A stretch of 64,000 nt of DNA from an uncultured Sutterella sp. (GCA_900767875.1 CAAGAT010000074.1:34270-98269), one strand, 5' to 3'; counted from the stretch's first letter, positions 1,882 to 44,481 are shown. The notes: a model not told the origin generated them from the sequence alone. Made by a program: numbers and translations.

Positions 1882-3558
1882 TTAGGCGCGCTTGACGATC
1901 GGCGCGGCGTCGCGCAGCTTGAGCACGCAGTGGTAGACCACCAGCACCGCCAGCACGATGAGGGCGGCGGCAACCACGAACTGCAGACCGTGGATGAGCC
2001 ACACGAAGGTGCCGTCCATCCAGGCGCGCACGATGCGGATGATGGCCTGCACGAGGGCGGTCATCGTCACGACGAACATGATCGTCATGGGCGCGTAGAG
2101 CATCCAGCCCTTGCGGCCGGTCGACTTAAGGTACACGGCCATGCCGGTGAGCACCAGAGCCGAGAGCAGCTGGTTGGCCGAACCAAAGAGCGGCCAGACG
2201 CTCATGTAGCCGGCCATGCAAAGCGCATAGCCCGCGATCAGCGTCAGGCACGTCGAAAACACCGTGTTGGTAAAGAGCTTTTGAACCGCGGTCTTTTCCT
2301 TGCCCGGTTCGGGCGTAAAGAGTTCCTGCAGCGACATGCGGCCGATGCGGGCCACCGCGTCCACGGAGGTCAGCGCCAGAGCCGAGACGCACATCGTCAG
2401 GATGCAGGCGGCCACCTGCTGGGGCACGCCGAAGATTTCCGTCAGGAAGGCGGCCACGGAGCCCGAGAAGGTCTGGAAGGGCGTGCCCGAGGGCAGCACG
2501 CCGTCGGTGGCGGCCGCGCACACGACGATGAGGGCCACCACGCCGAGCACCACTTCCAAGCACATGGAGCCGTAGCCGACCATGCGCATGTCCTTTTCAT
2601 TGGAAATCATCTTCGAGCTCGTGCCCGAGCTCACCAGAGAGTGAAAGCCCGAGACGGCGCCGCAGGCGATCGTCACGAAAAGAATCGGGAAGAGGTCGAG
2701 GTTATTGACCGTAAAGCCCGTAAAGGCCGGCATGTTGATCGAGGGGTTCTGAATGAACACGCCGATCACGCCGGCGATGATCATGCCGATCAGCAGGAAC
2801 ATCGACAGGTAGTCGCGCGGCTGCTTCAAAAGCCACATCGGCATCACCGACGCGGCAAAGAGGTAGGCGAAGACCACATAGCGCCAGGTTTCGGCATCGG
2901 CGTAGACGGGCAGGTAGATGCCCGCGGTCACCATCGCGACCATCAGCACGACGCCGACCACGAACTGCACGCCCGAGGAAGGCTTGCGGTACTTGAGGTA
3001 CAGACCGAAGAGCACGGCCACGAACATGTACAGCAGCGAAATCGACGCGGCGGCCGCGTTGGGCATGACTTGCGTGCCGTCCTTGGCGTAGCCGTTGAAC
3101 GTATTGGCCACCATGTCGCAGAAGGCGGCGATCACGAGCAGCGTAAAGAGCCAGCAAAAGAGCAAAAAGAGCTGACGGCCCGTGCGGCCCACGTAGGACT
3201 CGATGATCATGCCGACGGACTTGCCGCCGTTTTTGACGGACGCATACAGGGCCGAGAAGTCCTGCACGGCGCCGAAGAAGATGCCGCCGATGATCATCCA
3301 CAACAGAGCCGGAGCCCAGCCGAACATGGCGGCGATGATCGGGCCGGTGACGGGACCCGCGCCCGTAATGGACGTGAACTGGTGCGCAAACACCACCCAG
3401 CGCGACGCCGGGGTAAAATCCTTGCCGTCGTTTTTCTCCACGGCCGGCGTGGGGCGGTTCGGATCGATCCCCCACGTTTTTTCCAACCACCGCGCATAGC
3501 CGAAATAACCAAAGGCCAAGGCCACGATGGCGATCATCATGATTCCGATCCCGGTCAT
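1882..3558 (-). CDS. cstA: carbon starvation protein A family peptide/pyruvate transporter (CstA), 558 aa
   Basis: Polytopic membrane protein; N-terminus MTGIGIMMIAIVALAFGYFGYARWLEK..ITGAGPVTGPIIAAMFGW is the CstA signature. Confidence 0.9.
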   Translation of the reverse strand: MTGIGIMMIAIVALAFGYFGYARWLEKTWGIDPNRPTPAVEKNDGKDFTPASRWVVFAHQFTSITGAGPVTGPIIAAMFGWAPALLWMIIGGIFFGAVQDFSALYASVKNGGKSVGMIIESYVGRTGRQLFLLFCWLFTLLVIAAFCDMVANTFNGYAKDGTQVMPNAAAASISLLYMFVAVLFGLYLKYRKPSSGVQFVVGVVLMVAMVTAGIYLPVYADAETWRYVVFAYLFAASVMPMWLLKQPRDYLSMFLLIGMIIAGVIGVFIQNPSINMPAFTGFTVNNLDLFPILFVTIACGAVSGFHSLVSSGTSSKMISNEKDMRMVGYGSMCLEVVLGVVALIVVCAAATDGVLPSGTPFQTFSGSVAAFLTEIFGVPQQVAACILTMCVSALALTSVDAVARIGRMSLQELFTPEPGKEKTAVQKLFTNTVFSTCLTLIAGYALCMAGYMSVWPLFGSANQLLSALVLTGMAVYLKSTGRKGWMLYAPMTIMFVVTMTALVQAIIRIVRAWMDGTFVWLIHGLQFVVAAALIVLAVLVVYHCVLKLRDAAPIVKRA

Positions 3559-3698: not shown

Positions 3699-4508
3699 AT
3701 GACTTTCTTTTCTCCCTCCTACGTCACGGACTCCCCGGCCAGTATCGGAAATGTGGAGTTCGGCACGCCCCCCGTCAAAATCCTCTCGAGCGTGTGTGGC
3801 CGCAATGCCGAGGAAATGATCGAACAGGCCAAGGCGATCGAAGAGGCCGGCGCCGACGTCATCGAATGGCGCGCGGACTACTTTGACGAGGCGGGCGACT
3901 GGCGCGAGGCCGTGCGCCAAATGAAGGCGGCCGTCGCCAAGCCGATCCTCTACACCTTCCGCACCCGTGCCGAAGGCGGCGTGTGCACCACTCCCCTGTC
4001 GGATACGTCCTACCGCAAAAAGGTGATCGAGGCGATCGAGTCCGGGCTCTTTGAAGCCGTGGACATTGAGATTGCCCGCGGCCGAGCCGAGCAGCTCGTT
4101 GATGCGGCCCGGCAAGCCGGCGTCACGAGCATCGTGAGCTGGCACTACCTTGACCCCGAATGGCTCAAAGCCGACGATGTCTCCGACGACACCTTTGTGC
4201 GTCTGGCCCAAATGACTGAAGTCAACCCCGACATCGTCAAGATCGCCGTCATGCCCACCAAAGCCAATGACATCACCTACTTTATGGATTCGGTGGCCCT
4301 CTGGACGGACACGTATCAGCCCCCGGTTATCGCCATGTGCATGGGCAAAGTCGGCGCCCTCACGCGTGTGGGGGCCTCGGCCTTCGGCTCGTGCGCGACC
4401 TTTGCGAGCGCCGCGCAGACCTCGGCCCCGGGGCAGCTTGATGTGGCCACGACCCGCAAACTGCTTGAGCTTTTCTCCGACGATCCCGAGATCATCCGGC
4501 CCGAGTAA
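3699..4508 (+). CDS. aroD: 3-dehydroquinate dehydratase, type I
   Basis: 269 aa; ILYTFRTRAEGG and the ADVIEWRADYF region are typical of type I DHQase. Confidence 0.85.
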   Translation: MTFFSPSYVTDSPASIGNVEFGTPPVKILSSVCGRNAEEMIEQAKAIEEAGADVIEWRADYFDEAGDWREAVRQMKAAVAKPILYTFRTRAEGGVCTTPLSDTSYRKKVIEAIESGLFEAVDIEIARGRAEQLVDAARQAGVTSIVSWHYLDPEWLKADDVSDDTFVRLAQMTEVNPDIVKIAVMPTKANDITYFMDSVALWTDTYQPPVIAMCMGKVGALTRVGASAFGSCATFASAAQTSAPGQLDVATTRKLLELFSDDPEIIRPE

Positions 4509-4536
4509 GTTTTTGCGCTTTTCTTGATCTGGGCAA

Positions 4537-4590
4537 AAGGGCGCCTTTCCCGCCGAGGCAATCGGGAAGGCGCCTTTTTTATAATTTTTT
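4537..4590 (+). terminator. rho-independent terminator after aroD
   Basis: GGGCGCCTTTCCCG ... CGGGAAGGCGCC stem followed by TTTTTTATAATTTTTT. Confidence 0.75.
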
Positions 4591-4652
4591 GGTTGCGCCG
4601 ACGGTCTCTGTGCCGGAGCCCCGGCCAAGCATCCATTGGAGAAGAGACAAAA

Positions 4653-5924
4653 ATGAAAACCTACGACTTTGCCTACGGCCGCGGCCGCAAACAGTTCTCG
4701 ATCGACGAGAGCCTGGTTCTCAAGGAAGTTCGCACCGAAGAATTCACGCCGATGAGCGACGTCAAGCAGGGCGTGCTCGATGCGATCTACAACCCGATCG
4801 GCTGCGAGGCGATCGACAAGATCATCAAGCCGGGCGACACGGTGGCCTTCATCTGCAACGACCCGACGCGCGTGGCCAACAGCTTTGACTTCATGCCCGT
4901 GCTCGTCAACGAGATGAACAAGCTCGGCGTCAAGGACGAAGACATGCACATCGTCTTTTCACTGGGCACGCACCGCGACATGACGCATGAGGAAATGGTC
5001 GAAGCCGTGGGTCCGGAAGTGTCCTCGCGCCTGAAGATGTACAACAGCACGGCCACCAAGGACGAAGACTTCGAATACTTCGGCACGACGAGCCGCGGCA
5101 CGCCGGTGTGGATCAACAAGCACCTGTGCCACGTCGATCACGTGATTCTCACGGGCACGATCGTGCACCACTACTTCTCGGGCTACGGCGGCGGCCGCAA
5201 GGCCATTTTGCCCGGCTGCGCCGCGATGGAAACCGTGCGCGTCAACCACAGCTTCATGCTCGACAAGAACGCGGCCCTCGGCCGCACCGTCGGCAACCCC
5301 TGCTACGAGGATCAGATGGAAGGCGTGGCGCTTTTTGCCAAGGGCCGCTCGCTTTTCCTCTTTAACGCCATTCTCAACGCCAAGCACCGGTTCCTGCGCA
5401 TGTTCGCGGGCGACTACATCGCCGCGCACAAGGAGGCGTGCAAGTTCGTCGACGAAGTCTACGGCTGCGTGATTCCCAAGCTCGCCGACCTCGTGATCGC
5501 CTCGTGCGGCGGCTATCCCAAGGACATCAACGTCTATCAGATGCAAAAGACGATGGACAACGCCATGTGCGCCGTGCGCGAAGGCGGTGTGGTGATTCTG
5601 CTGGCCGACTGCGAGGAAGGCTCGGGCTCGAAGGTGCTCGAAGAAACCTTCCGTCGCCTCAAGACCCCCGAAGCGATCAAGGCCGAACTCGAGGCCAACT
5701 TCCGCATCGGCGCCAACAAGGCCTTTGCCATCACGCGTCCGATCTCGCACGCCCGCTACATTCTGGTGACGCGTCTGGATCGGCAGCTCGCCAAGGACAT
5801 GCTCTTTTCGGGCGCCGTCGACACGGTCGAGGAAGCGCTTGAAATCGCCAAGCAGTACGTCGGCGACAAGCCCTCGATCATTCTGATGCCCGAAGGCAGC
5901 CTCACGGTTCCGCGCGTGGCATAA
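4653..5924 (+). CDS. larA: LarA-family nickel-pincer-nucleotide-dependent 2-hydroxyacid racemase/epimerase (lactate racemase homolog), 424 aa
   Basis: Start chosen at MKTYDF after the GGAGAAGAGA RBS (the ORF-track start 4524 is upstream). The conserved NPN-tethering lysine context HHYFSGYGGGRKAILPG is present. DUF2088-type N-terminal domain. Confidence 0.8.
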   Translation: MKTYDFAYGRGRKQFSIDESLVLKEVRTEEFTPMSDVKQGVLDAIYNPIGCEAIDKIIKPGDTVAFICNDPTRVANSFDFMPVLVNEMNKLGVKDEDMHIVFSLGTHRDMTHEEMVEAVGPEVSSRLKMYNSTATKDEDFEYFGTTSRGTPVWINKHLCHVDHVILTGTIVHHYFSGYGGGRKAILPGCAAMETVRVNHSFMLDKNAALGRTVGNPCYEDQMEGVALFAKGRSLFLFNAILNAKHRFLRMFAGDYIAAHKEACKFVDEVYGCVIPKLADLVIASCGGYPKDINVYQMQKTMDNAMCAVREGGVVILLADCEEGSGSKVLEETFRRLKTPEAIKAELEANFRIGANKAFAITRPISHARYILVTRLDRQLAKDMLFSGAVDTVEEALEIAKQYVGDKPSIILMPEGSLTVPRVA

Positions 5925-6035
5925 CGCCTCTCGGGCCATTGTTTGCCCAATTGTCGCCCATTGAGCCCGTGCCCGCCCCCGACGGGGTCCGCGCGGGCTA
6001 AATTTTGAGCAAGCTCCCCAACCGTTTGCCGCCCT

Positions 6036-6716
6036 ATGTCCGAAACCTTCTCGCCCTGCATTCGTTTTGATCTGGCCCGCAGCGCCCGCATCGGTCTGCC
6101 CGAGGCGGTGTTCTGCGAGGGCAAGCCCCGCCGCGCCCTGCACACGCTGCTCACCCGTTTTGCCCAAGACAAAGCCACGCCCATTCTCTTTACGCGCCTT
6201 GACGAAGCGCTCTACCGTTCCTTTGAGGAAGAGATCACGCGCGTGTACGACTACGACCCCTTAAGCCGCACGGCCTGGAACGCCAAACTGCCCGCACGCC
6301 CCGAGGGCAAAGCCGCGATCGTCTCGGCGGGCACGGCCGACGGCGCCGTGGCGCGCGAGGCCGCACGAACGCTCACGTACCTGGGCTGGCGTTGCGAACT
6401 GTTCGAAGACTGCGGCGTGGCCGGTCTGTGGCGCATTCAAAGCGTCATCGATGAAATCAACACGGCCGACGTGATCGTCGTGACCGCCGGGCTTGACGCC
6501 GCCCTGGCCAGCGTGCTCGGGGGCCTGACGCACCGCCCGCTCATTGCGGTGCCCACATCCGTGGGATACGGCGTGGCGCAGGGCGGACAGGCGGCCTTGA
6601 GCAGCATGCTGAGCTCGTGTGCGCCGGGCGTGGCCGTCATGAACATCGACAACGGGTACGGGGCCGCCTGCGCCGCCGCCCGCATTCTCAACGCCGTTTA
6701 TCCGAGCAAGGACTGA
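6036..6716 (+). CDS. larB: LarB, pyridinium-3,5-biscarboxylic acid mononucleotide synthase (PurE-like)
   Basis: 226 aa; PurE/AIR-carboxylase-like C-terminal half (VIVVTAGLDAALASVLGG..IAVPTSVGYG); sits between larA and larC. Confidence 0.8.
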   Translation: MSETFSPCIRFDLARSARIGLPEAVFCEGKPRRALHTLLTRFAQDKATPILFTRLDEALYRSFEEEITRVYDYDPLSRTAWNAKLPARPEGKAAIVSAGTADGAVAREAARTLTYLGWRCELFEDCGVAGLWRIQSVIDEINTADVIVVTAGLDAALASVLGGLTHRPLIAVPTSVGYGVAQGGQAALSSMLSSCAPGVAVMNIDNGYGAACAAARILNAVYPSKD

Positions 6717-6718
6717 AA

Positions 6719-7507
6719 ATGCCGCATGAACACTCCCACAGCGCCGCGAGCGCCATCTCCCGCCCCGTGCTGACCGTCCGCGTGCACGCCGGCCTGAATG
6801 CCGGCAACCTTCTGGCCGGTCTTTTTGCCGTGAGCGGCATATCCCGCTTTTACAGCGCCGATGCCTTTTTCAAGAGCGTCTTTGCCGGCGCGCAGGCCGC
6901 CTTGTCTGTCAAGCCCGTGAGCGTGTGCGGCATCGGCGGCGTGACGGCCGTCTTTTCTCTGCCCGAGCAGGGGCACGAGCACGGCCACGTGCACCGCGCT
7001 CCGGCCGAGATCCTGCACTACTACGAAACGGCCGCGTCATTGTCCGAAGGGGCCCTGGAACTGGCCTCGCGCATTTGGCTCACGCTGGCGCAGGCCGAGG
7101 CGTCCGTGCACGGCGTGCCGCTTGAGGCCGTGCACTTTCACGAAGTCGGCCGCATGACCAACATCTGGGCCGTGGGTCTGATTGCCGAACTCTTTGCCGC
7201 GCTCAACCCGGTGCGCTTCGTCTCGTCCTCGCTGCCGCTGGCCGACGGCACGGTGCGCTGCGCGCACGGCCTCGTGCCCAATCCGGCGCCCGCCACCCTG
7301 GCGCAGCTCGAGGGCGTGTCGGTGCGCGCCTACGAGGGCAGCGGCGAAACCGTCTCGCCCACGGGGCTGGCCATCCTCAAGGGACTCGGCGCCCAATTCG
7401 GCGCCTGGCCCGAAATGAGCGTCACGCGACAGATCACCGCCTTTGCCGAGGGCAAGGTCTTTGAAGGCGCCAACGGCCTCGTCTTTGCCATGGGCCGCGC
7501 GCTCTAG
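6719..7507 (+). CDS. larC: LarC nickel-insertion protein, N-terminal (LarC1/DUF111) domain only, 262 aa
   Basis: His-rich QGHEHGHVHR, the FHEVGRMTNIWAVGLIAE motif and TPTGLAILKGLGAQFG all match the DUF111 N-domain. The ORF stops where the CTP-binding C-domain would begin. ATG lies 2 nt after the larB stop. Confidence 0.7.
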   Translation: MPHEHSHSAASAISRPVLTVRVHAGLNAGNLLAGLFAVSGISRFYSADAFFKSVFAGAQAALSVKPVSVCGIGGVTAVFSLPEQGHEHGHVHRAPAEILHYYETAASLSEGALELASRIWLTLAQAEASVHGVPLEAVHFHEVGRMTNIWAVGLIAELFAALNPVRFVSSSLPLADGTVRCAHGLVPNPAPATLAQLEGVSVRAYEGSGETVSPTGLAILKGLGAQFGAWPEMSVTRQITAFAEGKVFEGANGLVFAMGRAL

Positions 7508-7603
7508 GGCCGCTTCAGAGCGCACCACATGCAAACGGCGCGCCGAATTTACAATCGGTGCGCCGTTGCCTTTTGGGGGCCGCCGTCCCCCTCCTTATCC
7601 GCC

Positions 7604-8989
7604 TTAGAACGGGAGTTTGACGCTCGGATCCACGGACAAAATGAACTTGGCAAAGCGATCCTTGATGCGCGAGAGCGCTTCGGGCGTATCGCCCTCGACT
7701 CGGATCACGGCCACAGGCGTGGTGTTCGAGGAGCGCGCCAACGCAAAGCCGTCCTTAAATTCCACGCGCAACCCGTCGATGAGAATCACGTCTTCGGCGT
7801 CGTCGAACTTGGCCGCTTCGCGCAGCTTTTCAATGAAGGCCTTGTTCTGCCCTTCCTTTTCAAATTCGATGTGCAGTTCGGGCGTGTTCACGGCCGTGGG
7901 AAGTGCATCCAAAACGGCCGACGGATCGGTGCTGCGGCTCACAATCTCAAGCAGGCGCGCGGCCGCGTACATGCCGTCGTCAAAACCCGGCCAGCGGTCG
8001 TCGTTGAAAAAGAGGTGGCCGCTCATTTCACCCGCAAAGGGAGCGCCCGTTTCGCGCAAGCGGGCCTTGACGAGCGAGTGGCCCGTGGCGCTGATCGTGG
8101 GCACGCCGCCGCGCTCGCGGATCCAGGGCACCAGCGCGCGGGTGCACTTGACGTCGTAGATGATCTGAGCGCCCGGATGGCGCTTGAGCACATCCTCGGC
8201 AAAAAGCATCATCTGACGGTCCGGATAAATGATGTGGCCCGTGCGGGTCACCACGCCGAGGCGGTCGGCGTCGCCGTCAAAGGCAAGGCCGAGTTCGGCA
8301 TCGCCCTTTTGCACCGCGGCAGTGAGGTCCGTGAGGTTGGCGGGCTTGCTCGGATCGGGATGGTGATGCGGAAAGTTGCCGTCGATTTCAAAGTAAAGCG
8401 GCTCGACCTCGACGCCCAGCCCCTTGAATAGGCGCGCCGCCAGGGGGCCGGCCACGCCGTTGCCGCAGTCCACGGCCACCTTCATGGGGCGGGCGAGCTT
8501 GACGTCGCCGAGAATATTTCCCAGATAGGCGGGCGTGACGTCCACTTCTTCAATGCGGCCGGGCTTGTCGGCCTTGACGACGTCGCCGGCTTCAATCGCG
8601 TCGGCGATGGCGGCGATCTCGTGCCCGAAAAGCGTCAGGCCCCCGAGCATCATCTTCAGGCCGTTGTACTCGGACGGGTTGTGCGAGCCCGTGACGGCCA
8701 CGCCCGAGCCGCAGCCGAAATGGTGCGTGGCAAAGTACAGCACCGGCGTGGGCACCATGCCGATATCCTTGACGTTCACGCCGGCCGAGACGATCCCCCG
8801 CATGAGCGCGCCCGTCAGCGAAGGCCCCGACAGACGCCCGTCGCGGCCGACGCACACCGTGTCGATGCCCTTGCGGACGGCCCAGGTGCCGAGCACCTCG
8901 CCGACGGCACGCACCACCTCTTCGGTGAGGGTCTTGCCCACGATGCCGCGGATGTCATAGGCCTTGAAAATGGGACGATCAAGCTGCAT
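7604..8989 (-). CDS. phosphomannomutase/phosphoglucomutase (alpha-D-phosphohexomutase family)
   Basis: Active-site GSHNPSEYNG; start set at internal MQLDRPIFKAYDIRG (462 aa) rather than the TTG-initiated 550-aa track ORF. Confidence 0.85.
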   Translation of the reverse strand: MQLDRPIFKAYDIRGIVGKTLTEEVVRAVGEVLGTWAVRKGIDTVCVGRDGRLSGPSLTGALMRGIVSAGVNVKDIGMVPTPVLYFATHHFGCGSGVAVTGSHNPSEYNGLKMMLGGLTLFGHEIAAIADAIEAGDVVKADKPGRIEEVDVTPAYLGNILGDVKLARPMKVAVDCGNGVAGPLAARLFKGLGVEVEPLYFEIDGNFPHHHPDPSKPANLTDLTAAVQKGDAELGLAFDGDADRLGVVTRTGHIIYPDRQMMLFAEDVLKRHPGAQIIYDVKCTRALVPWIRERGGVPTISATGHSLVKARLRETGAPFAGEMSGHLFFNDDRWPGFDDGMYAAARLLEIVSRSTDPSAVLDALPTAVNTPELHIEFEKEGQNKAFIEKLREAAKFDDAEDVILIDGLRVEFKDGFALARSSNTTPVAVIRVEGDTPEALSRIKDRFAKFILSVDPSVKLPF

Positions 8990-9258: not shown

Positions 9259-11061
9259 ATGCGTACCACTTACTGTGGCTTGGTCGATGAGAAGCTGATC
9301 GGCCAGACTGTCACCCTTTACGGGTGGGCACACCGTCGTCGCGACCACGGCGGCGTGATTTTTATTGACTTGCGCGACCGTGAAGGCCTCGTTCAGGTGG
9401 TTTGCGATCCGGACCGCCCCGATGTGTTCGCTACGGCCGACAAGATCCGCAACGAATTCTGCCTTTCCGTGGTCGGCACCGTGCGCGCCCGCCCCGAAGG
9501 CACCAAGAACGAACACCTGATCTCGGGCGGCGTCGAAGTTCTGTGCAAGGAACTCGAAATCCTCAATCCGTCCCTGCCGCCCCCCTTCCAGCTCGACGAC
9601 GACACGGTGAGCGAATCGGCCCGTCTGACCTACCGCGTGCTCGACCTGCGCCGTCAGCAGATGCAGAACAACCTCAAGCTGCGCTTTAAGGTGACGCAGG
9701 CCTTCCGTCACTTCCTCGACGAGAACGGCTTCATCGACATCGAAACGCCGTTCCTGACCAAGTCCACGCCCGAAGGCGCCCGCGACTACCTCGTGCCCTC
9801 CCGCACGATGGACGGCCACTTCTTCGCGCTGCCGCAGTCGCCGCAGCTGTTCAAGCAGCTGCTGATGGTCGCCGGCTTTGACCGCTACTATCAGATCGTC
9901 AAGTGCTTCCGCGACGAAGACCTTCGTGCCGACCGTCAGCCCGAATTCACGCAGGTTGATATTGAAACCTCCTTCCTGAAGGAAGAGGAAATCCGCGACA
10001 TCATGGAACGGCTCATCCGCCGCGTCTTCAAGCAGGTTCTCGACGTGAACCTCGAGGCCGACGGCAAACGCTTCCTCGTGATGCCCTACAAGCAGGCCAT
10101 GGCCGACTACGGTTCGGACAAGCCCGACCTTCGCGTCAAGCTCAAGCTCGTCGAAGTCACGGACATCGTGGCCGACAGCCAGTTCAAGGTCTTTACGGCC
10201 GTCAAGTCCCTGCACAACGGCAAGGTCGTGGCGCTGCGCGTTCCGGGTGCCGCCGCCATGCCGCGCTCGGAAATCGACGGCTACACGGAATTTGTCAAGA
10301 TCTACGGCGCCAAGGGCCTGGCCTACATCAAGATCAACGACGTGACCGCCGGCCGCGAAGGCATGCAGGGTCCCGTGGTCAAGAACCTCTCGGACGAAAT
10401 CGTCGCCAAGATTGTTGAAGTCACCGGCGCTCAGTCCGGCGACGTGATCTTCTTCGGCGCCGACAAGGCCAAGATCGTCTACGACAGCCTCGGCGCTCTG
10501 CGTCTGAAGATCGGTCACAGCGAATTCGGCAAGAAGCACGGCCTGTTTGAAGACGCCTGGCGTCCGCTGTGGGTCATCGACTTCCCGATGTTCGAGTACT
10601 CCGAAGAGGATCAGCGCTGGGTCGCCTGCCACCATCCCTTCACGAGCCCGAAGGACGAATGCGTGGACATGCTCGAAACCGATCCGGAAAACTGCTACGC
10701 CAAGGCCTACGACATGGTTCTGAACGGCTGGGAAATCGGCGGCGGCTCCGTGCGTATCCACCGTGCCGACGTTCAGAGCAAGGTGTTCAGCGCCCTGAAG
10801 ATCGGTCCGGAAGAAGCCCGCATGAAGTTCGGCTTCCTGCTCGACGCCCTTCAGTTCGGTGCGCCTCCCCACGGCGGCATCGCCTTCGGTCTGGACCGCA
10901 TCGTCACCATGATGACCGGTGCGCCGTCCATCCGTGATGTGATTGCCTTCCCGAAGACGCAGCGCGCCCAGTGTCTGCTCACCGGCGCTCCGAGCCCGGT
11001 CGACGAAAAGCAGCTGCGCGAACTGCACATTCGCCTGCGCAACGAACCCAAGAAGGATTAA
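9259..11061 (+). CDS. aspS: aspartyl-tRNA synthetase
   Basis: 600 aa; N-terminal OB fold, class II motifs, GDD insertion domain; strong family resemblance over the full length. Confidence 0.95.
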
Positions 11062-14501: not shown

Positions 14502-15128
14502 TCAGTAATCGCGCGCGGCGTACTTGTCGGCAAGCTTATTGAGGTAGGCGATCACTTCGGGACCGGTCCAGTCCACAAAACCGCGCACGAAGCCCACGAG
14601 GTTGCCCTGACCGTCGAGCACGAAAAAGCTCGGCACCACATCGAGCGGCACATCGTCGCCGATCACCTGCTTGGTGTCGATCAGGGTGCTGAAGTCTTCG
14701 CCAAGACCGTAGCGCTTCATGAACTTCTTGACGTCCTTGACGTTGTCGTCCACGGACACGGAAATGACGTGCACCTTGCTCTTGGGATCCTTGTTGAAGT
14801 GGCGCTGCAGCTCGTGCATGGCCGGCATCGTACGGATGCACGGCTCACACCAGGTCGCCCAGACGTCCAGGAGCACGAGCTTGCCCTTGAAGGAATTCAG
14901 GGCCACCGGCTTGCCGTTCAAATCGGGCAGCACGGCCTTGGAAAAACCGCGGGTGTGACGCATTTCCAAAAAGTCGCGCAGCTGACCGGGCTTGCCCGCC
15001 ATGGGTTCGCCGTTTTCGACGATCTTGTTTTGGAAGGCCGGAACGTATTCCTCGGCCTGGGGCTGGGCCGCCACGGCGGACACGGACAGGCTTGCCGCCA
15101 GAGCAAGCGAGAGCAACAGACGTTTCAC
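14502..15128 (-). CDS. periplasmic thioredoxin-like thiol:disulfide oxidoreductase (TlpA/ResA/DsbE family); last gene of the octaheme-cytochrome cluster
   Basis: WATWCEPC active site. Start assigned to GTG (V of VKRLLLSLALAASLSVSAVAA signal peptide) preceded by AGGAGA. Confidence 0.8.
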   Translation of the reverse strand: MKRLLLSLALAASLSVSAVAAQPQAEEYVPAFQNKIVENGEPMAGKPGQLRDFLEMRHTRGFSKAVLPDLNGKPVALNSFKGKLVLLDVWATWCEPCIRTMPAMHELQRHFNKDPKSKVHVISVSVDDNVKDVKKFMKRYGLGEDFSTLIDTKQVIGDDVPLDVVPSFFVLDGQGNLVGFVRGFVDWTGPEVIAYLNKLADKYAARDY

Positions 15129-15166
15129 TTTAGGTCTCCTGAAATGCAATGGTTGTTGGTATGCGG

Positions 15167-15634
15167 TTAGGGCTTTGCGGCCGGCTTTTGGCGCCGGCGC
15201 AGACTGCGCCAGAAAAGCAGGGCGCCGACGGCTGCGGCAATCCAGGGCGCGGCCCAGAGTAGAAAAGTGGTGGCGTTAAAATCGGGCTGATAACGCACGG
15301 CCTCCCCGTAGCGCTCGGCCATGTAGTCGAGAATTTCGCCGCGGCTCGCCCCTTCCCGGAGCTTTTGATAAATGAGGGCCTTGAGCTCGCCGGATAGGGC
15401 CGTTTCCGACTCGTAGAGCGTGTTGTTGGCCGAGCTCGGATCGCGCAGCAGCTTGGAAACGGCGATGGCCTCGTCGTAAAGCGCGCGGCCGCTCAAGCCT
15501 TCGCTCTTTTGAGCCGGCTGCGTTGCCGATGCAACGGGCTCGACCGCCTGTGCCGGCATCGGCGTTGCCGTCACGAGCATGAGGGCCGCGCCCAAGGCCA
15601 CCAGGACCCCTTGAATGCGTTGCAAAAGCGTCAT
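15167..15634 (-). CDS. CcmH/NrfF-like cytochrome c maturation protein lacking the CXXC motif
   Basis: C-terminal ALIYQKLREGASRGEILDYMAERYGEAVRYQP aligns to E. coli CcmH (KVYELMQEGKSKKEIVDYMVARYGNFVTYDP). Where CcmH has LRCPKCQNN this protein has LRDPSSANN. Start codon overlaps the upstream CcmF-like stop. Confidence 0.7.
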   Translation of the reverse strand: MTLLQRIQGVLVALGAALMLVTATPMPAQAVEPVASATQPAQKSEGLSGRALYDEAIAVSKLLRDPSSANNTLYESETALSGELKALIYQKLREGASRGEILDYMAERYGEAVRYQPDFNATTFLLWAAPWIAAAVGALLFWRSLRRRQKPAAKP

Positions 15635-17523
15635 TTCCTGAGCTCCTTTCGGCGGCGGGTCAAAAGCGTCACGAGGCCCGCGAACATCATGAGAGCGGCG
15701 GCGCCCCACAGCCAGCTTGCCAGCGGTTTGACGGCCAGTCGCACGAGCCACTCGGTCTCGGAGAGCTTGTTGCCCATCGACACGTACAGGTCGCGCAACA
15801 GGCCGTGATCGATGCCCGCGGCCGTCATCTGCATGCCGTTGGACACAAAGGTCTGGCGCATCGGGAACAAATCCGTGAGGTGGCTCTCGTCCGAGGCCTT
15901 CAAAACCTCAATGTGTGCCGCGTCGCCAAAGTAGGCGTGCGTGTTGACCTTGTAGGTGTCGCGGTAGACGAAAATCACATCCCCAACGGGCTTGCCCGCG
16001 CCCGGCCCCATGCGCACGAGCGCCTCGGTTTCGTACTGCGCAATGCCCGTGGCTCCGACGATGGCCAGGGCGATCGACACGTGCGCGAGCACCGCGCCGA
16101 CGGCAGGGCGAGCGCCCGCCGTCACAAAAGGAGCAATGCTTGCGGCCGCCAGCCAGCCCGCGCTCGCAAAGGCCGCAAAGGTCATGCCGAGCTCCTTGGG
16201 CCCGGTCACAAACGCCAGGCTCCCGCACAAAAGAGCCACGACGGCGCATGCAGCGATGGTCGCCTTAAGGTGCCGCGCGCCCAAAATCTGCGCGCCGCCG
16301 GCCGCGACGGCCGCAAACAGGCTCATGGGCGCAAAGAAGCTGTTGAAGTAGGGAGCCCCCACCGTGAGGGACCCCAGGCCTGCCATGTCGTAAAAGACCG
16401 GATAGAGCGTGCCCACGAGCACGGCCGCCGCTCCCACGCACAGGGCGCACACGGCCAGCGTCAGGCCCGTGTCGAGCGCATCGGGATCGCTCACTTCGCG
16501 CGTCTCGGCCTTTTGGACCGCATCAATGCGCAGGGCATAAAAGACGAGCCCGGGCACGAGCACCAGAATGCAGGCGATGAGCAGCACGACGCCGCGCTCG
16601 GGGTCGGAGGCAAAGGCGTGCACGGACTGCATCAGGCCGCTGCGCACGATGAAGGTACCGAGCAGACACAGCGCAAAGGAAACGATGCCGAGCATCAGAA
16701 CCGTGCGCAGCATGCGCGCGCGCTTTTCAAAAAGAATCAGGGCGTGCAGCAGGGCGCTCACCGTGAGCCACGGAATGAAGGAGGCGTTTTCGACCGGGTC
16801 CCAGAACCACCAGCCGCCCCAGCCAAGTTCCGTGTAGGCCCACCAGGAGCCCAGCGCATTGCCCGCCGTCAGAAAAATCCAGGTGATGATGCCCACGCGC
16901 TTGAGCGCGGCCACGGCCTCGGGTGAGAGGCGCCGCATCCACAGCACGGCCGTCACGAGAGCAAAGACCACGGCCAGCCCGGCGTAGGCGGCAAAGATGA
17001 CGGGCGGATGCAGGATCATGCCGATGTCCTGCAGGATGGGATTGAGGTCGCGCCCCTCCAAGGGAACCGCCGGCAGGTTGCGCAGGAAGGGGTTGGCGGC
17101 CGTCAGCACAAAGGTGGCGAACACGCCCGTGACGGCAAGCATCACGCACTGAATGCGCGCGCTGAAGGCTTCGCGGCCGCGGTGAAAGAGCGCCTCCAGA
17201 CAGGCCGCCACCGCAATGAAAACGAGCCAGAGCAGCATCGAGCCCTCGTGGCTGCCCCAAAGCGCGGCCGTCTTGTAGAGCGTCTCAAGCTTGGTGTTGG
17301 AGTGGTCGGCCACATACGTGATCGAAAAGTCATCGATCAAAAAGGCGCGCAGCAAAATCCCCGCGACGACAATCAGGCACAGCGCTGCGGCGGGCGTGCA
17401 CACACGCCACAGGCCCGCCAGAGTCTTGTTGTCCCTGACGAGGCCGGCAAAAACCGCCGCGGCCCCAAAGAGGGACGAAGCCGCCGCCAAACACAGCAAA
17501 AAGTGACCGAACTCGGCAATCAC
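15631..17523 (-). CDS. CcmF/NrfE-like cytochrome c-type biogenesis protein (heme lyase), 630 aa
   Basis: WWFWDPVENASFIPWL (WWD domain); polytopic membrane protein; CcmF family over the full length. Confidence 0.9.
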   Translation of the reverse strand: MIAEFGHFLLCLAAASSLFGAAAVFAGLVRDNKTLAGLWRVCTPAAALCLIVVAGILLRAFLIDDFSITYVADHSNTKLETLYKTAALWGSHEGSMLLWLVFIAVAACLEALFHRGREAFSARIQCVMLAVTGVFATFVLTAANPFLRNLPAVPLEGRDLNPILQDIGMILHPPVIFAAYAGLAVVFALVTAVLWMRRLSPEAVAALKRVGIITWIFLTAGNALGSWWAYTELGWGGWWFWDPVENASFIPWLTVSALLHALILFEKRARMLRTVLMLGIVSFALCLLGTFIVRSGLMQSVHAFASDPERGVVLLIACILVLVPGLVFYALRIDAVQKAETREVSDPDALDTGLTLAVCALCVGAAAVLVGTLYPVFYDMAGLGSLTVGAPYFNSFFAPMSLFAAVAAGGAQILGARHLKATIAACAVVALLCGSLAFVTGPKELGMTFAAFASAGWLAAASIAPFVTAGARPAVGAVLAHVSIALAIVGATGIAQYETEALVRMGPGAGKPVGDVIFVYRDTYKVNTHAYFGDAAHIEVLKASDESHLTDLFPMRQTFVSNGMQMTAAGIDHGLLRDLYVSMGNKLSETEWLVRLAVKPLASWLWGAAALMMFAGLVTLLTRRRKELRK

Positions 17524-17619
17524 GCTTTCTTTTCCTTATGCATCGCCTTTCCCTTGGGAAAAGCGGTTGATTCGTTCGTCGGACTTTACGCGCCCAACCT
17601 TCCGTCTGGCTGAAAACCC

Positions 17620-18417
17620 TCAGAAGCGCTTGCGCGCAAAAATCGTGCGGGCCAGGGCAAAAAGCGCCGCAGCCCAAGCAATCAGCACGGCCGTCAGGGC
17701 CGAGGCGGGCACGCCCGAGGCCACCGACCCAAAAAGCGACTGATTCAAGAGGCGAAAGGCACTGGCCGGATTGGCGAGCATGAGCGCGTTGAGCACGCCG
17801 CGCGGCAGGCCGCCCGTCATCGAGACGGCCGCCACCAATAGCCCGAGGTCATAGAGCAGCACCACCGCCAGCCACACGAGCACGAGAATGGCCAGCGCCT
17901 GCGCCTTGGTGCGCACCGACAGGCTCACGCAGTAGGCGGCAAACATAAAAACGAGCCCGAGCAGCCAGGCCGTGGCCGCGCTCACCGCCAGCGCCGCCAT
18001 CATCTCGCCCACGGCGTAGGGCACGGCGGCAAAAGCGGCCGCCACCGGCATCACGGCAAAACCGAGCATCAGCACGATGGCCACGGCCGCCCCCTGCCCG
18101 ATCGCCTTGCCGAGCAAAAAGGCCGTGCGGCTGAGCGGATAGGTGAGCATCAAAATGAGCATGCCGCCCTCGAGTTCGCCCACCAAGGCGTCGTAGGCGA
18201 GCAAAATGGCCAGCAGCGGCAGCAAAAAGACCGTGAGCGAAACCAGCGAATTCATCACCACCGACAGGGGCGGATAGGCAAAGCTGCCCCCGATGGCGGC
18301 CGTGCCGAAAAAGACGGCCAGCGACAGGATGGCAAAAAGCAGCGCGCCCGAGACGAGCCAGCGGCTTTGCAGACAGTCGAGCAGCTCCTTGCGGGCCACA
18401 AGCCAAACGTTTCTCAT
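17620..18417 (-). CDS. NosY-like ABC-2 family permease
   Basis: 6-TM ABC-2 permease; start at MRNVWLVARKELLD overlaps the upstream ATPase stop (ATGA). Confidence 0.7.
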   Translation of the reverse strand: MRNVWLVARKELLDCLQSRWLVSGALLFAILSLAVFFGTAAIGGSFAYPPLSVVMNSLVSLTVFLLPLLAILLAYDALVGELEGGMLILMLTYPLSRTAFLLGKAIGQGAAVAIVLMLGFAVMPVAAAFAAVPYAVGEMMAALAVSAATAWLLGLVFMFAAYCVSLSVRTKAQALAILVLVWLAVVLLYDLGLLVAAVSMTGGLPRGVLNALMLANPASAFRLLNQSLFGSVASGVPASALTAVLIAWAAALFALARTIFARKRF

Positions 18418-19316
18418 TGCGCCTCCTCGCGTTGCGCCTGCCCGCTCTTGAGGCAATAGGCGGCAAAAAGGTCGGTCAGACCCGCCCGGCGGATGTCAAA
18501 GTCAAAGTCGTGCATCTCTTGCGTCAGAATCCGAATCACCTCGGGCACCTCGCGCTCGGGCACGCGCAGCGTCTCACCCTCGAGGTACTTGGCGGCGGGA
18601 CCGGCGAGCAAGGCCTGACGGTCAAAGCCGCGGATGACGGCCTTGAGGTTGGAGCGGCGCCGCAGCTCTTCGAGCGTACCGCTTGCGCGCAGTTTGCCGC
18701 CCGCCATCATGAGCACAAAATCGGCGTAGGGCTCGATGAGGCTGAGCTCGTGCGTGCACACGATCACGGTGCAACCCTGCGCGCGCAGCTTGGCCAGCTC
18801 GGCGTACATCCAGGAGGAAGCCTGCGGATCGAGCCCCACGGTGGGCTCGTCAAGAATCATGATTTTGGGCTGCGCCAGCAGCGCCTGCGCCAGTCCGAGG
18901 CGTTGACGCTGGCCATTGGAGCACTGGTTCATGCGGTTGTTGCGCACGGCCGATAGCCCGAGAGCCTCGAGCAACTCGTCGACGCGCGTGGGAGCCACCC
19001 CCTTGAGGGCGGCAAAGTATTTGAGGTGCGCGAGCATCGTCATCTGCTCGTAAAAGCTGATGTTTTCGGGCAGATAGCCGATGCTCAGGGGATCGGATCC
19101 CGGCACCTTGCCCAACACCGTCACGCTGCCCTCTGCGGGGTAAAGTAGCCCGAGAATGTTTTTGATGAGCGTGGACTTGCCCGCCCCGTTGTGGCCGATC
19201 AGCGCCGTGAGCGTGCCCTCTTTGAGCGAGCAGCTCACCCCGTCGAGCACCTTGCGCGAGCCGCGCCAAAAGCCCAGGTTCTTCACGCCGATCGTTTCGG
19301 CACGATTTTCCGTCAT
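18414..19316 (-). CDS. NosF-like ABC transporter ATP-binding protein
   Basis: Walker A GHNGAGKST, ABC signature, Walker B ILDEP; start overlaps the NosD-like stop. Confidence 0.8.
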   Translation of the reverse strand: MTENRAETIGVKNLGFWRGSRKVLDGVSCSLKEGTLTALIGHNGAGKSTLIKNILGLLYPAEGSVTVLGKVPGSDPLSIGYLPENISFYEQMTMLAHLKYFAALKGVAPTRVDELLEALGLSAVRNNRMNQCSNGQRQRLGLAQALLAQPKIMILDEPTVGLDPQASSWMYAELAKLRAQGCTVIVCTHELSLIEPYADFVLMMAGGKLRASGTLEELRRRSNLKAVIRGFDRQALLAGPAAKYLEGETLRVPEREVPEVIRILTQEMHDFDFDIRRAGLTDLFAAYCLKSGQAQREEAQ

Positions 19317-20608
19317 TTGTGTGCTCCCAAAACCGCAGGAGCGCTCATCAGCGGATGGCTGTCGGTGACTCCCTTGCCCCGGTCGATTTCAAGCCGCGCG
19401 GCAAACCAGCGCAGCAGCGCCGTCACCGGGCTTTCCATCAGAAAGCGCGCTTCCGGATAAATCCAGAAAATGCGGTCCAGACTGTCGTTGGGCTGGTAGG
19501 GCGTATCGGCGATGCCGTCGCCGTCGGCGTCCCAGCTCATGAAGGTGCTCCAGTAGTTGCCGCGCCCGTTTTCGCTCCACTCCAAGGGCGTCTTGCCCAC
19601 ATAGCGCACCTGAATCGTGTTTCGGTCAAAGGCGTTGCCCGTGACCACGGTTTTTTCGCCCCCGAGCGCCACGCCGATGCCGATGTCGGCGCCCGTAAAG
19701 GCGTTGCCCTCGACGCGGCTCGCGCCCGGGCCGTAAATGAAGAGTCCCTTGCCTTCGGTATCGAGAACCGCCTTTCCCTTGGGGTTGTGCACGCCCTCGA
19801 CCAAATTGGACTTGACGGTGCAGGCCTCGCAGACGTTGAGCAGGATGCCGAATTCGACGCTGTCACGGGCGGTGTTGTCGCGGCACAAAATCCGGCGGCT
19901 GCTCATCAGGGCAAAGCCGCCCACGGAATTGACCGTCGTATTGTCGTATCCGACGTCGTCGCGCGTGTACATCCAGTGAATGCCGTACTGGGTGTTGTCA
20001 AAAAAGTTGCCGCGCGACTCGGTGCCGTCCGTGTTTTCAAAGTAAAAGCCGTCGCGCACGTTGCGCACGGTGTTGTCGATGAGTTGCGAGCGCTTGACGT
20101 AGTTCAAAAAGACGCCATCGCCGCGATCGAGGATGTGCCGCCGTGCGTTGCCTTCGATCCGGCAGTCGCGCACGACGAGGTTTTCGAGACGGTCGGCCCG
20201 GATGCCAAAGCCCGGCCCGGATAAAGTGAGGGTCGTCAGGCGCACCCCCTCACAGCCGTCCATCACGCGCACGCCGCTGTCGCGCTTATACAGGTTGCCG
20301 CCGTAGTTGCGCACCGTCAGGTTTTCAATCGTGGTGCGCGAGCGTCGGATCGTGATGCCGCTGCCCCGGCCGCCCGCGTCAATGACCGCGCCGTCTTCGC
20401 CGCGCACGGTCAGGGGCTCTTTGAGAAGCAGATTGAGTTTGTAGACGCCCTTGGCAAAGACGATCGTATCGCCCTCCTCGACTTCGTCGAGAATAGCCTT
20501 GACGTCATCGGAGGGCGTCACGCGCCAAACCGCGGCCTGCGCACCGAGCGCAAAGACCGACAGAGTCAGCGCCAAGGCCGTTGGCCCAAATAAACGAAAG
20601 GGCTTCAC
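19313..20608 (-). CDS. NosD-like periplasmic copper-binding parallel beta-helix protein
   Basis: 431 aa with a signal peptide; repeated right-handed beta-helix units (NTVRNVRDGFYFEN, GNAFTGADIGIGV, GNAFDRNTIQVRY). Confidence 0.8.
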   Translation of the reverse strand: MKPFRLFGPTALALTLSVFALGAQAAVWRVTPSDDVKAILDEVEEGDTIVFAKGVYKLNLLLKEPLTVRGEDGAVIDAGGRGSGITIRRSRTTIENLTVRNYGGNLYKRDSGVRVMDGCEGVRLTTLTLSGPGFGIRADRLENLVVRDCRIEGNARRHILDRGDGVFLNYVKRSQLIDNTVRNVRDGFYFENTDGTESRGNFFDNTQYGIHWMYTRDDVGYDNTTVNSVGGFALMSSRRILCRDNTARDSVEFGILLNVCEACTVKSNLVEGVHNPKGKAVLDTEGKGLFIYGPGASRVEGNAFTGADIGIGVALGGEKTVVTGNAFDRNTIQVRYVGKTPLEWSENGRGNYWSTFMSWDADGDGIADTPYQPNDSLDRIFWIYPEARFLMESPVTALLRWFAARLEIDRGKGVTDSHPLMSAPAVLGAHK

Positions 20609-20621
20609 GATCGGGCGTCCT

Positions 20622-21113
20622 TTAGCGGTCGAGCAACTCGAGCGTCACGTCCTTGTAGGCGTAAAGCTTGCCGCCGTGCTTGGCCATGAAGGCCTGCGCC
20701 TTGTCTTGCGAGGAAAAGGCGGCCGGTTCGTTGCCCATGACGCCTTCGACGTCGTGCCCGTAGACAAACCAAGCCTTGGTCGCGTCGATGAGCGCCTGAT
20801 CCGAGGGGCTGTCCCAGTCGGTCGCGCCCATGTCGTGAATGAAAAAGCCGAGCAGACGACGCGCGTTTTCCGGCTGCAGGGCAAAGGTAAAGGCGTCGCG
20901 CCCCGAGCAGAACTTCACGGTCTCGTCTTCGGCGCCCTTGATGAAGACTTCGGCCTTGGGGCCGGGATAGTGGGCGATCACCATGCCGCACATGTGGCAG
21001 CGGTCGTGCGCCTCAAAGGCGACGGGCTTGACCGTTTCGGCGGCCTTGTCCGAGCAACCCGCCAAAAGAGCGCACAAGGCGGCGGCCATCAAAAATCGGG
21101 GAGCGGTCGGCAT
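20622..21113 (-). CDS. NosL-like copper chaperone lipoprotein
   Basis: Lipobox LAGCSDK, conserved HDRCHMCGMVI metal-binding segment, 163 aa. Confidence 0.8.
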   Translation of the reverse strand: MPTAPRFLMAAALCALLAGCSDKAAETVKPVAFEAHDRCHMCGMVIAHYPGPKAEVFIKGAEDETVKFCSGRDAFTFALQPENARRLLGFFIHDMGATDWDSPSDQALIDATKAWFVYGHDVEGVMGNEPAAFSSQDKAQAFMAKHGGKLYAYKDVTLELLDR

Positions 21114-21219
21114 CCGTTGTTTCCTTTGGGCGAGCTTGGCCCGGAAAAGTCACGAGAGACAACCGTCCAAGACGCCCCGCGGCGCCTCAACGGTTGGCTT
21201 TCAAAGCTTTAATTATGAC

Positions 21220-21303
21220 GATGCCGCCGGTGAAGGCGGCATCGGTCGGGCGGAAACTTGCGGTTTCCGTTTCAGACCCGAGCCCGGCTTGCGCCGGTCT
21301 CGG
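21220..21303 (-). other. three consecutive perfect or near-perfect stem-loops in the 211-bp gap between the NrfD-like gene and the NosL-like gene
   Basis: GATGCCGCC-GGTGAA-GGCGGCATC; CGGAAAC-TTGC-GGTTTCCG; CCGAGCCCGGC-TTGC-GCCGGTCTCGG. None has a strong U-tract. Confidence 0.45.
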
Positions 21304-21324
21304 AGGTCTGAGAGCATCCTCGGA

Positions 21325-22245: not shown

Positions 22246-22247
22246 CT

Positions 22248-22946: not shown

Positions 22947-22984
22947 AGACAGAACCGATTGGCATGGCCAAACGTTTCTGCCGA

Positions 22985-23629: not shown

Positions 23630-23686
23630 GTCAATGCCTTCACTTTGTTAAAGAGCTTGTCTTGGAAAGCCTTCACCGCCCGACCA

Positions 23687-24472: not shown

Positions 24473-24541
24473 AAATACAGTTGACTCACGGAAGGTGAGA
24501 TCACATTCCGCATAAAACTTGCTTTTCGCCTTCGCGCGGCC

Positions 24542-24967: not shown

Positions 24968-25077
24968 TTTGTGTTTCGATGAGCCGTCTCTTATCCGGTC
25001 CTCGGCCCGAAAGCCGGCGCCCTTGGAGCACCGCCTTCGGCCGAGACTAGGAGATCGAGGTTTGCGAGTCGCTTGGA

Positions 25078-44442: not shown

Positions 44443-44481
44443 AAGCGTTCTCCCGTCGGATTAAAGCCGCCCACGGACGGC

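Follow-up and report, generated by a model that had tools for sequence, protein, structure and literature searches.

The lar locus of an uncultured Sutterella

A 64,000-nucleotide stretch of DNA from an uncultured Sutterella sp. (GCA_900767875.1 CAAGAT010000074.1:34270-98269; hereafter, the window) carries nickel-pincer nucleotide (NPN) cofactor genes in the order larA-larB-larC at positions 4653–7507. An open reading frame (ORF) map and Pfam and NCBIfam family scans confirm the coordinates and description that an earlier note on this DNA, made from the sequence alone, had given for these genes. All three lie on the plus strand: a larA homologue (4653–5924, 423 amino acids (aa); Pfam Lar_N and LarA_C), larB (6036–6716; NF033503), and larC (6719–7507, 262 aa; PF01969 and TIGR00299.2). 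The larC ATG at 6719 is 2 bases past the larB stop codon, the larC stop codon occupies 7505–7507, and the three genes form a tight operon. Their domains mark the products as predicted members of the LarA, LarB, and LarC families. The unusual member of the set is larC, which encodes a LarC1-only form of the protein belonging to the second of two subclasses, class I and class II, that are defined below.

LarC is a single-domain protein

To our knowledge, LarC is the only biological cyclometallase that has been described. The LarCs of Moorella thermoacetica and Lactiplantibacillus plantarum are CTP-dependent cyclometallases with LarC1 and LarC2 domains (PDB 12BI and 6BWO); the window LarC shares with them a homologous LarC1 domain and a larB neighbor. 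An August 2026 cryo-electron microscopy study proposes that LarC2 CMPylates the substrate, which subsequently travels ∼50 Å to LarC1 (PMC13510736).

The window LarC covers positions 16–218 of the 375-position Pfam Ni_insertion model (PF01969) and nothing beyond, and scores 124 bits against the NCBIfam ‘nickel_LarC1’ model TIGR00299.2 (cutoff 90). It aligns with M. thermoacetica LarC (LarC_Mt, 12bi) over chain residues 87–240, which are native residues 69–222 (E = 8e-24); the LarC_Mt sequence was recovered from the PDB 12BI alignment and is numbered consistently with the residues that PMC13510736 names. In an alignment of short LarCs that includes P0118, these proteins end at about native residue 237 of LarC_Mt, the start of the linker between the two domains (residues 236–248; PMC13510736). 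Relative to the Moorella and L. plantarum enzymes, the window LarC lacks the 13-residue linker and the entire LarC2 domain, and the LarC2-based hexamer core of known LarCs cannot form. Short LarC stops exactly at the LarC1/linker boundary and is no truncation product. An AlphaFold2 model built with 93 homologues (predicted local distance difference test score (pLDDT) 94.9, predicted template modeling score (pTM) 0.91) is a single compact domain with seven helices and a β-sheet, which matches the published description of LarC1. A fold search with this model returned zero matches in a PDB library because the library predates the release of 12BI; the null result agrees with the published ‘new fold’ statement for LarC.

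The missing domain was not found elsewhere in the window. A LarC2 hidden Markov model (HMM), built from the L. plantarum and Moorella LarC2 domains, matched nothing in six-frame translations of the whole 64 kb (best E 0.28); the separate NCBIfam LarC2 model, NF052512, matches LarC_Mt at 128.6 bits. Moreover, there is no room for a LarC2 domain after larC, because a phosphomannomutase/phosphoglucomutase gene (pgm/pmm) converges on it and has its stop codon only 96 bp away. The window LarC therefore lies outside the canonical CTP-dependent cyclometallases as defined by a LarC2 domain, and the Pfam span, the TIGR00299.2 match, and the six-frame search all bear out the earlier note’s reading that the ORF stops after LarC1 and that LarC2 is absent.

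The window LarC also contains two His-rich stretches, MPHEHSH (residues 1–8) and EQGHEHGHVHR (residues 83–93). Many other short LarCs (among them P0110, P0055, P0072, P0093, P0106, and P0113) carry long His-rich N- or C-terminal tails, with up to ∼100 residues of HxH repeats.

A family of LarC1-only proteins

Short LarCs are widespread. A database search returned 268 LarC relatives, of which the best 120 are nearly all 215–300 aa long; the few longer relatives that were examined (304–369 aa) have His-rich tails. A profile search of 1.84 billion representatives returned 8468 LarC-family clusters. The ∼20 closest are all short, and full-length LarCs (∼390 aa) rank after them. A scan of one genome per species yielded at least 80 loci; together with loci found by look-up, 73 distinct short-LarC loci and 15 full-length loci were analyzed, over a neighborhood reaching 10 kb to each side of every homologue and, for the window, over its 64 kb.

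None of the 73 distinct short-LarC neighborhoods contains a match to the LarC2 HMM, whereas the same model scores 84–143 bits in 15/15 full-length loci. The full-length controls include a locus (L086) in which LarC1 and LarC2 are encoded by separate, adjacent ORFs. NCBI keeps separate LarC1 and LarC2 models, a sign that annotators cope with the split. Other lar genes are common near short larC: LarB is adjacent in 59/74 loci (44/59 in class I, 15/15 in class II) and LarE in 35/74 (26/59 and 9/15), the class counts summing to 74 with one duplicate included. Examples are the larE-larB-larC(short) operons of Solidesulfovibrio and Rhodovulum and the larA-larB-larC(short)-larE operons of Sutterella and its relatives.

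In a neighbor-joining tree of the LarC1 domain, in which full-length proteins are thinly sampled, the short LarCs are monophyletic with respect to 16 full-length sequences. The window LarC shares the features of this clade: a length of ∼250 aa, an end at the domain boundary, clustering with the other short proteins, and an adjacent larB. The LarC1-only form sits inside complete lar operons across the clade, so the missing LarC2 belongs to the family as a whole and not to this locus. The clade probably lost LarC2 once and then radiated through Sutterellaceae, Desulfovibrionaceae, Rhodobacterales, and others.

A recurrent substitute for LarC2, not homologous to it and encoded beside short larC, was also considered. 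Clustering of 2028 neighboring ORFs gave no nucleotidyltransferase-like family present in at least five short-LarC loci, and this candidate was rejected. The gene nadD occurs in these neighborhoods only in Rhodovulum loci, where it opens the operons.

Two classes of LarC1 pocket

Examination of the LarC1 pocket separates residues that are nearly universal from those that differ between two groups of short LarCs. The window LarC retains H92, R93, E127, H131, H139, H141, E142, H183, and E210, the equivalents of LarC_Mt H70, R71, E104, H108, H116, H118, E119, H160, and E187; these include the His cluster and E104 by which LarC1 is recognized. When all short LarCs are aligned with LarC_Mt, little or no variation is seen in the His cluster or at R71, E104, E119, and E187. 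Other pocket positions are replaced in the window protein: S13N (N27), G14A (A28), D15G (G29), A122R (R145), D124T (T147), A125N (N148), and D128A (A151). Compared with the Moorella enzyme, it has lost the acidic residues D15, D124, and D128, now G29, T147, and A151, and gained Asn27, Arg145, and Asn148.

These substitutions define class II (15 loci, including the window; Sutterella and Duodenibacillus), in which S13N, G14A, A122R, A125N, and D128A are accompanied by a variable residue at D15 and S, T, or A at D124. The set is coordinated and conserved across ∼70 cluster representatives, and class II is monophyletic in the LarC1 tree. Class I (59 loci; Desulfovibrionaceae, Rhodobacterales, Parasutterella, Turicimonas, and others) keeps D15, D124, and D128. 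The pocket motifs are SGDM…EVGALDSxxD in class I and NAxx…EVGR[ML][STA]NxxA in class II. Class I proteins such as those of Solidesulfovibrio (P0118) and Rhodovulum (P0115) belong to the same clade as the window LarC and resemble it in length, end point, association with LarB and LarE, and absence of LarC2 in cis, but they have the canonical acidic pocket and rarely have LarA nearby. The Moorella variants D15A, D124A, and D128A each show a marked loss of activity (PMC13510736), so the class II pocket is genuinely different from that of canonical LarC. The window LarC departs from the characterized CTP-dependent enzyme in two defining features, the LarC2 domain and the Asp triad.

The two classes also differ in their genomic company. 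LarA is encoded nearby in 13/15 class II loci but in only 3/59 class I loci; class II is tied to LarA, and class I instead adjoins other candidate cofactor users.

Several genes recur beside short larC. A DUF362 protein that has a 4Fe-4S dicluster domain inserted in it is encoded within 5 kb of class I larC (L024:2510–3652) and in 10 more loci (L017, L019, L029, L032, L035, L037, L040, L046, L048, and L075). The loci that bear it, from Bilophila, Mailhella, Lawsonia, Oryzomonas, and Syntrophobacter, all lack larA, and the protein is a candidate new user of a pincer cofactor. Aldo-keto reductase (AKR) genes likewise lie beside short-LarC clusters (L004/L050:12321–13481, L040, L048, L063, L092:5726–6814, and L093). 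Some of the encoded reductases are fused to 4Fe-4S domains, and in some Sutterella loci the gene is directly upstream of larA. These neighbors fit the reported AKR family that depends on the nickel-pincer mononucleotide (NPMN) (PMC13524815). In alphaproteobacterial loci, the region upstream of larE-larB-larC(short) conserves genes for a MoCF_biosynth (MogA/CinA-like) domain protein and for Fe-S proteins (L064:2617–3573, L047, L056, L057, and L059), which could have to do with the supply of pyridine nucleotides or with nucleotidylation. Finally, in a Syntrophobacter sp. (L075:9707–11332), a class I LarC1 is extended at its C-terminus by ∼190 residues without similarity to LarC2.

LarA and LarB

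The window LarA matches Lar_N (PF09861, 1.8e-60) and LarA_C (PF21113, 7.3e-22), the domains of the LarA superfamily. Its residues were read by alignment to the structures of L. plantarum LarA (LarA_Lp, 5huq) and Mar2 (6d6z) and compared with the residue list that defines NPN-dependent LarA homologues and their specificity regions (PMC7583248). The earlier note had pointed to a retained context for the NPN-tethering lysine, GGGRKAILPG; this motif spans LarA residues 179–188, and K183 within it aligns with the tethering K184 of LarA_Lp. D70, R73, H107, H173, K183, and H199 of the window protein correspond to LarA_Lp D72, R75, H108, H174, K184, and H200, and Y295, Q296, and K299 to Y294, Q295, and K298. 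The two catalytic histidines, the tethering lysine, the nickel-binding histidine, and the equivalents of D72, R75, Y294, Q295, and K298 are therefore in place. The concern that LarA might lack other catalytic residues is set aside by the alignment, in which all cofactor-binding and catalytic residues are present.

The substrate is less clear from the family scores. Among NCBIfam models, the protein scores highest against LarAH10 (420 bits; cutoff 540) and the malate racemase family LarAH6 (399; 500), followed by LarAH5 (336; 462) and LarA (290; 460); the window LarA reaches none of the cutoffs of the characterized subfamilies represented by NCBIfam equivalogs (lactate, malate, LarAH10, and hexonate). 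The nearest solved structure is Mar2 (6d6z, E 3e-84). By structure and by family, the window LarA is matched best by Mar2 (LarAH6, PDB 6D6Z) and Megasphaera elsdenii LarAH10, and it has all of their catalytic and cofactor-binding residues. Q298 and K356 correspond to Mar2 Q293 and K351, and the glutamine before the catalytic lysine is kept. The specificity loop, however, reads Y174-F175 where Mar2 has Y172-K173, and a GANK motif replaces GAHK. Because the scores fall below the cutoffs and the loop and motif differ from Mar2, malate specificity is doubtful. The window LarA is best described as a predicted member of the NPN-dependent 2-hydroxyacid racemase/epimerase family, similar to Mar2 and LarAH10.

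The larB gene follows larA, as the earlier note had it. Its product scores 248.8 bits against the LarB equivalog NF033503 (cutoff 175) and matches the L. plantarum LarB structures 7mj0 and 8soq with E ∼1e-42; C195, in an SSCAPG motif, is the equivalent of the catalytic Cys221. The window LarB carries A127, W158, D180, and A181, as LarBs encoded beside short LarC typically do. Such LarBs show H158W (55/58), E180D (52/58), G181A, and changes at N144 and E133. Short LarC thus goes with W158, D180, A181, and a hydrophobic residue at 144, and full-length LarC with H158, E180, G181, and N144. This contrast draws on only 7 LarBs from full-length-LarC loci and is confounded with phylogeny, and the apparent co-variation of LarB with the form of LarC is a lead only. 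The A127 that is common in LarBs beside short LarC is also the residue of the engineered S127A variant, which favors the dicarboxylated product.

Loss of larE from the operon

No gene for LarE, the sulfur insertase, is present in the window. The SGGxDS PP-loop motif does not occur in any frame of the 64 kb, and two LarE HMMs found no match there. These results agree with the earlier note, which had seen no PP-loop LarE, and the window falls short of a complete NPN locus (larB, larC, and larE) by this one gene. That a LarC2 or LarE might be concealed in a different reading frame or at another place in the window was also considered, and was rejected on the basis of the six-frame HMM and motif searches and their positive controls.

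Comparison with related loci shows that larE was lost from this operon. A Duodenibacillus locus (L010) has the order aroD..larA-larB-larC-larE, followed by pgm on the minus strand and aspS on the plus strand. The window and three related species (L001, L007, and L009) have the same order minus larE, with larC abutting pgm; the position of larE in Duodenibacillus is the site of a hairpin pair in the window (7531–7590). These four loci group with L010 in the LarC tree. The simplest history is a single deletion of larE from the operon in this lineage. The alternative posed by the earlier note, that LarC2 and LarE are encoded elsewhere or that the pathway is a variant, can now be sharpened: the absence of LarC2 is family-wide, and that of larE is lineage-specific.

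The remaining genes are under purifying selection. Between the window and L001, LarA is 97% identical, with a ratio of nonsynonymous to synonymous substitution rates (dN/dS) of 0.012; the values are 85% and 0.07 for LarB and 69% and 0.13 for LarC, and dN/dS is 0.03 for aspS, all of these ratios being computed with saturated dS.

A profile search for LarE returned 1146 LarE-type matches. The contexts examined among these (P0136, P0125, and P0122) are ordinary Sutterella larABCE operons, with no LarE from the lineage of the window. In gut Sutterellaceae and Desulfovibrionaceae, short LarC is accompanied by a distinct LarE subtype (AYSGG[LF]DSRF, RCYxCK, RPCLLTRFPYG, and a C-terminal LSGFYDR; L005, L006, L010–L017, L019, L025, L028, L032, L035, and L045), which barely passes TIGR00268 (154–160 bits; cutoff 150). 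The LarE of the sister loci shares the SGGxDS PP-loop and CXXC…C with the [4Fe-4S]-dependent LarE of Thermotoga maritima (PMC9283937), but it is a divergent subtype and is absent from the window. In an uncultured Lawsonia sp. (L046:3211–4193), a LarE-type frame downstream of short larC is split into three fragments and is possibly a pseudogene in this genus of intracellular pathogens.

Boundaries of the operon and other genes in the window

Upstream of larA lie cstA (1882–3558, minus strand) and a type I aroD (3699–4508, plus strand). The adjacency of aroD and larA, which the earlier note proposed to check, is kept across the lineage of the window, although aroD itself diverges fast (38–60% identity across the lineage versus 77–97% for its neighbors, and 59–60% when set against housekeeping neighbors at 88–97%). 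In one species of this lineage, aroD and larA are separated by a gene for a major facilitator superfamily (MFS) transporter (L007:6092–7339), which could hint at the LarA substrate. The earlier note had also placed a strong terminator after aroD. A terminator-like hairpin with a U-run is indeed found on the plus strand at 4535–4590 (fold of 4509–4600), with a stem formed by AAAAGGGCGCCUUUCCC...GGGAAGGCGCCUUUU and followed by UUUUUUAUAAUUUUUU; a consensus terminator scanner run on the window omits it because its loop is too long. This hairpin probably delimits the lar transcription unit on its 5′ side.

Two further structures were found by folding. Between larA and larB, a GC-rich hairpin on the plus strand (5964–5999; fold of 5922–6038) is followed by UAAAUUUUGAG. 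Compared with shuffled sequences it has z = −2.2 (7/200 shuffles fold equally well), and it is possibly a partial terminator or attenuator inside the operon. Between the convergent larC and pgm/pmm, two hairpins at 7531–7590, with no strand assigned, fold at −46.3 kcal/mol (z = −3.75; 0/200 shuffles as stable; fold of 7505–7606, plus strand). In the fold prediction, the pair resembles a bidirectional terminator. An Rfam scan of the window found no riboswitch and no other RNA family.

Beyond the operon lie pgm/pmm (7604–8989, minus strand) and aspS (9259–11061, plus strand). A Pfam and NCBIfam inventory of ∼45 further window genes contains no nickel transporter and no PP-loop protein; the only entries noted in this respect are one ThiF/MoeB-type protein and two rhodaneses. 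Elsewhere, a minus-strand cluster at 14502–27198 encodes a 706-aa multiheme cytochrome with seven CxxCH motifs and one CX15CH, together with a rhodanese, an FKBP isomerase, a tetratricopeptide repeat protein, an NrfC-like Fe-S protein, NrfD, NosL, NosD, NosF/NosY-like ABC components, CcmF, and a thioredoxin-like protein. We take this cluster to resemble the MccA/SirA-type dissimilatory sulfite reductase systems of Wolinella and Shewanella. At 42929–44985 (minus strand), a primase-like gene (Zn-ribbon, DUF7146, and Toprim) is followed by two ORFs without a family match, possibly the remnant of a mobile element. Neither Pfam nor NCBIfam has a match for a 665-aa ORF at 33871–35868 (plus strand). 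The product of 54271–57993 (plus strand) is a Snf2-type helicase of 1240 aa that matches the SCO1167 and ZorD/DrmD families at sub-threshold scores.

A model for LarC1-only nickel insertion and its rivals

In the current model, the mononucleotide of pyridinium-3,5-bisthiocarboxylic acid (P2TMN) is CMPylated in LarC2, and nickel is inserted in the LarC1 pocket near the His cluster, with E104 as the nucleophile (PMC13510736). LarC1 holds the proposed insertion site, and L. plantarum LarC also converts P2TAD, the AMP-carrying analogue, to cofactor (PMC13510736). The short enzymes retain all of the residues assigned to insertion and nothing assigned to activation. We lean, at somewhat better than even confidence, toward short LarC being a self-sufficient LarC1-only insertase in a working nickel-pincer pathway whose LarE is unlinked; this reading is favored because a LarC2 partner is absent from all 73 neighborhoods. 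The larA-larB-larC genes would then be an intact, expressed operon of a Sutterellaceae bacterium. LarB would make the dicarboxylated pyridinium nucleotide with NaAD (nicotinic acid adenine dinucleotide) as the precursor, and LarE, after its loss from the operon, would be supplied by an unlinked gene. The remodeled LarC pocket would bind the thiolated pyridinium nucleotide directly, the His-rich LarC surface would deliver nickel, and the Ni–C bond would form without a CMPylation step in cis. We infer from this that short LarC would be independent of CTP and that LarE would be encoded outside the operon.

Several points weigh against a self-sufficient insertase. Any alteration of the LarC1–LarC2 linker markedly lowers the activity of Moorella LarC, and L. 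plantarum LarC cannot do without the CTP-binding residues of its LarC2 (PMC13510736). A LarC1-only enzyme without D15, D124, and D128 contradicts the current model because the corresponding Moorella mutants are impaired. A gene for LarC2 or LarE may lie beyond the ±10 kb and 64 kb covered here. In addition, LarC outpaces LarA and LarB in the lineage without larE, as compared with Sutterella pairs that contain larE, and this faster divergence could reflect relaxed constraint.

A bolder form of the proposal, which we hold only tentatively, is that LarC1-only proteins are CTP-independent nickel cyclometallases and a second natural route to the Ni–C bond. CMP activation would be unnecessary because AMP is retained until nickel insertion, which would fit the W158/D180 LarBs, or because, in the Sutterella subclass, the Arg/Asn pocket binds the mononucleotide phosphate instead of the Asp triad. 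The lineage of the window would have no dedicated, operon-encoded LarE.

The main rival, which we regard as unlikely but the one to be taken most seriously, keeps the known CTP-dependent chemistry and assigns the missing steps to a stand-alone, CMPylating LarC2 and a LarE whose genes lie elsewhere and which work in trans with the LarC1-only protein. Both LarC2 and the linker matter in the only LarCs that have been studied (PMC13510736), two ORFs encode the LarC of L. plantarum itself, and the control locus L086 has separate LarC1 and LarC2 ORFs. Moreover, lar genes frequently lie apart; 33/59 class I loci have no LarE within 10 kb. If a partner were required, however, the operon should contain it in at least some cases, and 0/73 short-LarC loci have a LarC2 within 10 kb although LarB and LarE are commonly adjacent. 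The short LarCs are also a single clade whose members stop precisely at the domain boundary, and the crippling effect of linker changes in Moorella LarC implies that an untethered LarC2 would work poorly.

Less probable again is a route in which AMP is retained. Here, LarB would leave the AMP of NaAD in place, or an adenylyltransferase would restore it, and LarE would make P2TAD, a mimic of the CMPylated intermediate. LarC1 alone would then insert nickel to give either the mononucleotide, after hydrolysis, or a nickel-pincer adenine dinucleotide (NPAD). This route draws on the acceptance of P2TAD by L. plantarum LarC (PMC13510736), on the NPAD cofactor of ornithine cyclodeaminases (cited in PMC13524815), on the nadD genes that begin Rhodovulum operons, and on the systematic LarB differences (H158W in 55/58, E180D in 52/58, G181A, and the N144 and E133 changes). 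The LarB contrast is nonetheless confounded by phylogeny, with only 7 LarBs on the full-length side, and H158 and E180 are only putatively involved in hydrolysis. The window LarA closely resembles homologues that use the mononucleotide, no ornithine cyclodeaminase is found among the recurrent neighbors, and class II has lost the aspartates that might bind the metal-pyrophosphate of a dinucleotide.

It is improbable that the locus is a decaying remnant, non-functional since the deletion of larE and with larA, larB, and larC becoming pseudogenes. Such decay would be in keeping with the lack of larE in the operon and the 64-kb window and with LarC being the fastest evolving of the three genes. 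Yet at least four species (those of the window, L001, L007, and L009) have intact ORFs for all three genes, the close LarC relatives P0001–P0015 are also full length, and all catalytic and cofactor-binding residues are retained. The dN/dS values (0.012, 0.07, and 0.13) and the 97% identity of LarA, which is as conserved as aspS, likewise argue against it. An artifact of sequencing, assembly, or a frameshift near position 7500, which the earlier note had raised and which has only the unusual length of LarC in its favor, is rejected on comparative grounds: >100 independent sequences, drawn from many assemblies, have this length and end in the same way (…NG-x-x-FA-[LM]-G), the 96 bp that follow larC hold terminator-like hairpins and then a convergent gene, and no frame has similarity to LarC2.

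Significance

Molybdenum insertion offers an analogy, though not a homology, for the division of labor discussed above. Fused Cnx1 (G and E domains) and the separate MogA and MoeA of bacteria indicate that nucleotidylation and metal insertion are separable and can be carried out by one or two polypeptides (PMC13510736); at the short-LarC loci, in contrast, no nucleotidylating partner was found. Natural LarC1-only enzymes are not mentioned in the literature examined, which includes the available part of the 2026 LarC structure paper (PMC13510736) and a 2026 paper on LarC-anchored genome mining, although an earlier description may exist. An E. coli Duet complementation system for lar genes is available (PMC11796402).

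Common gut bacteria, including Sutterella, Bilophila, Mailhella, and Parasutterella, carry members of the LarC1-only clade in lar operons that are otherwise complete. Genome mining that uses LarC as a marker for pincer cofactors should recognize the short form. The substrate of the Sutterellaceae LarA may bear on hydroxy-acid metabolism in the gut. More broadly, the clade may serve as a natural experiment on whether the nucleotidyl activation of the cofactor precursor is dispensable, supplied in trans, or replaced by the retention of AMP.

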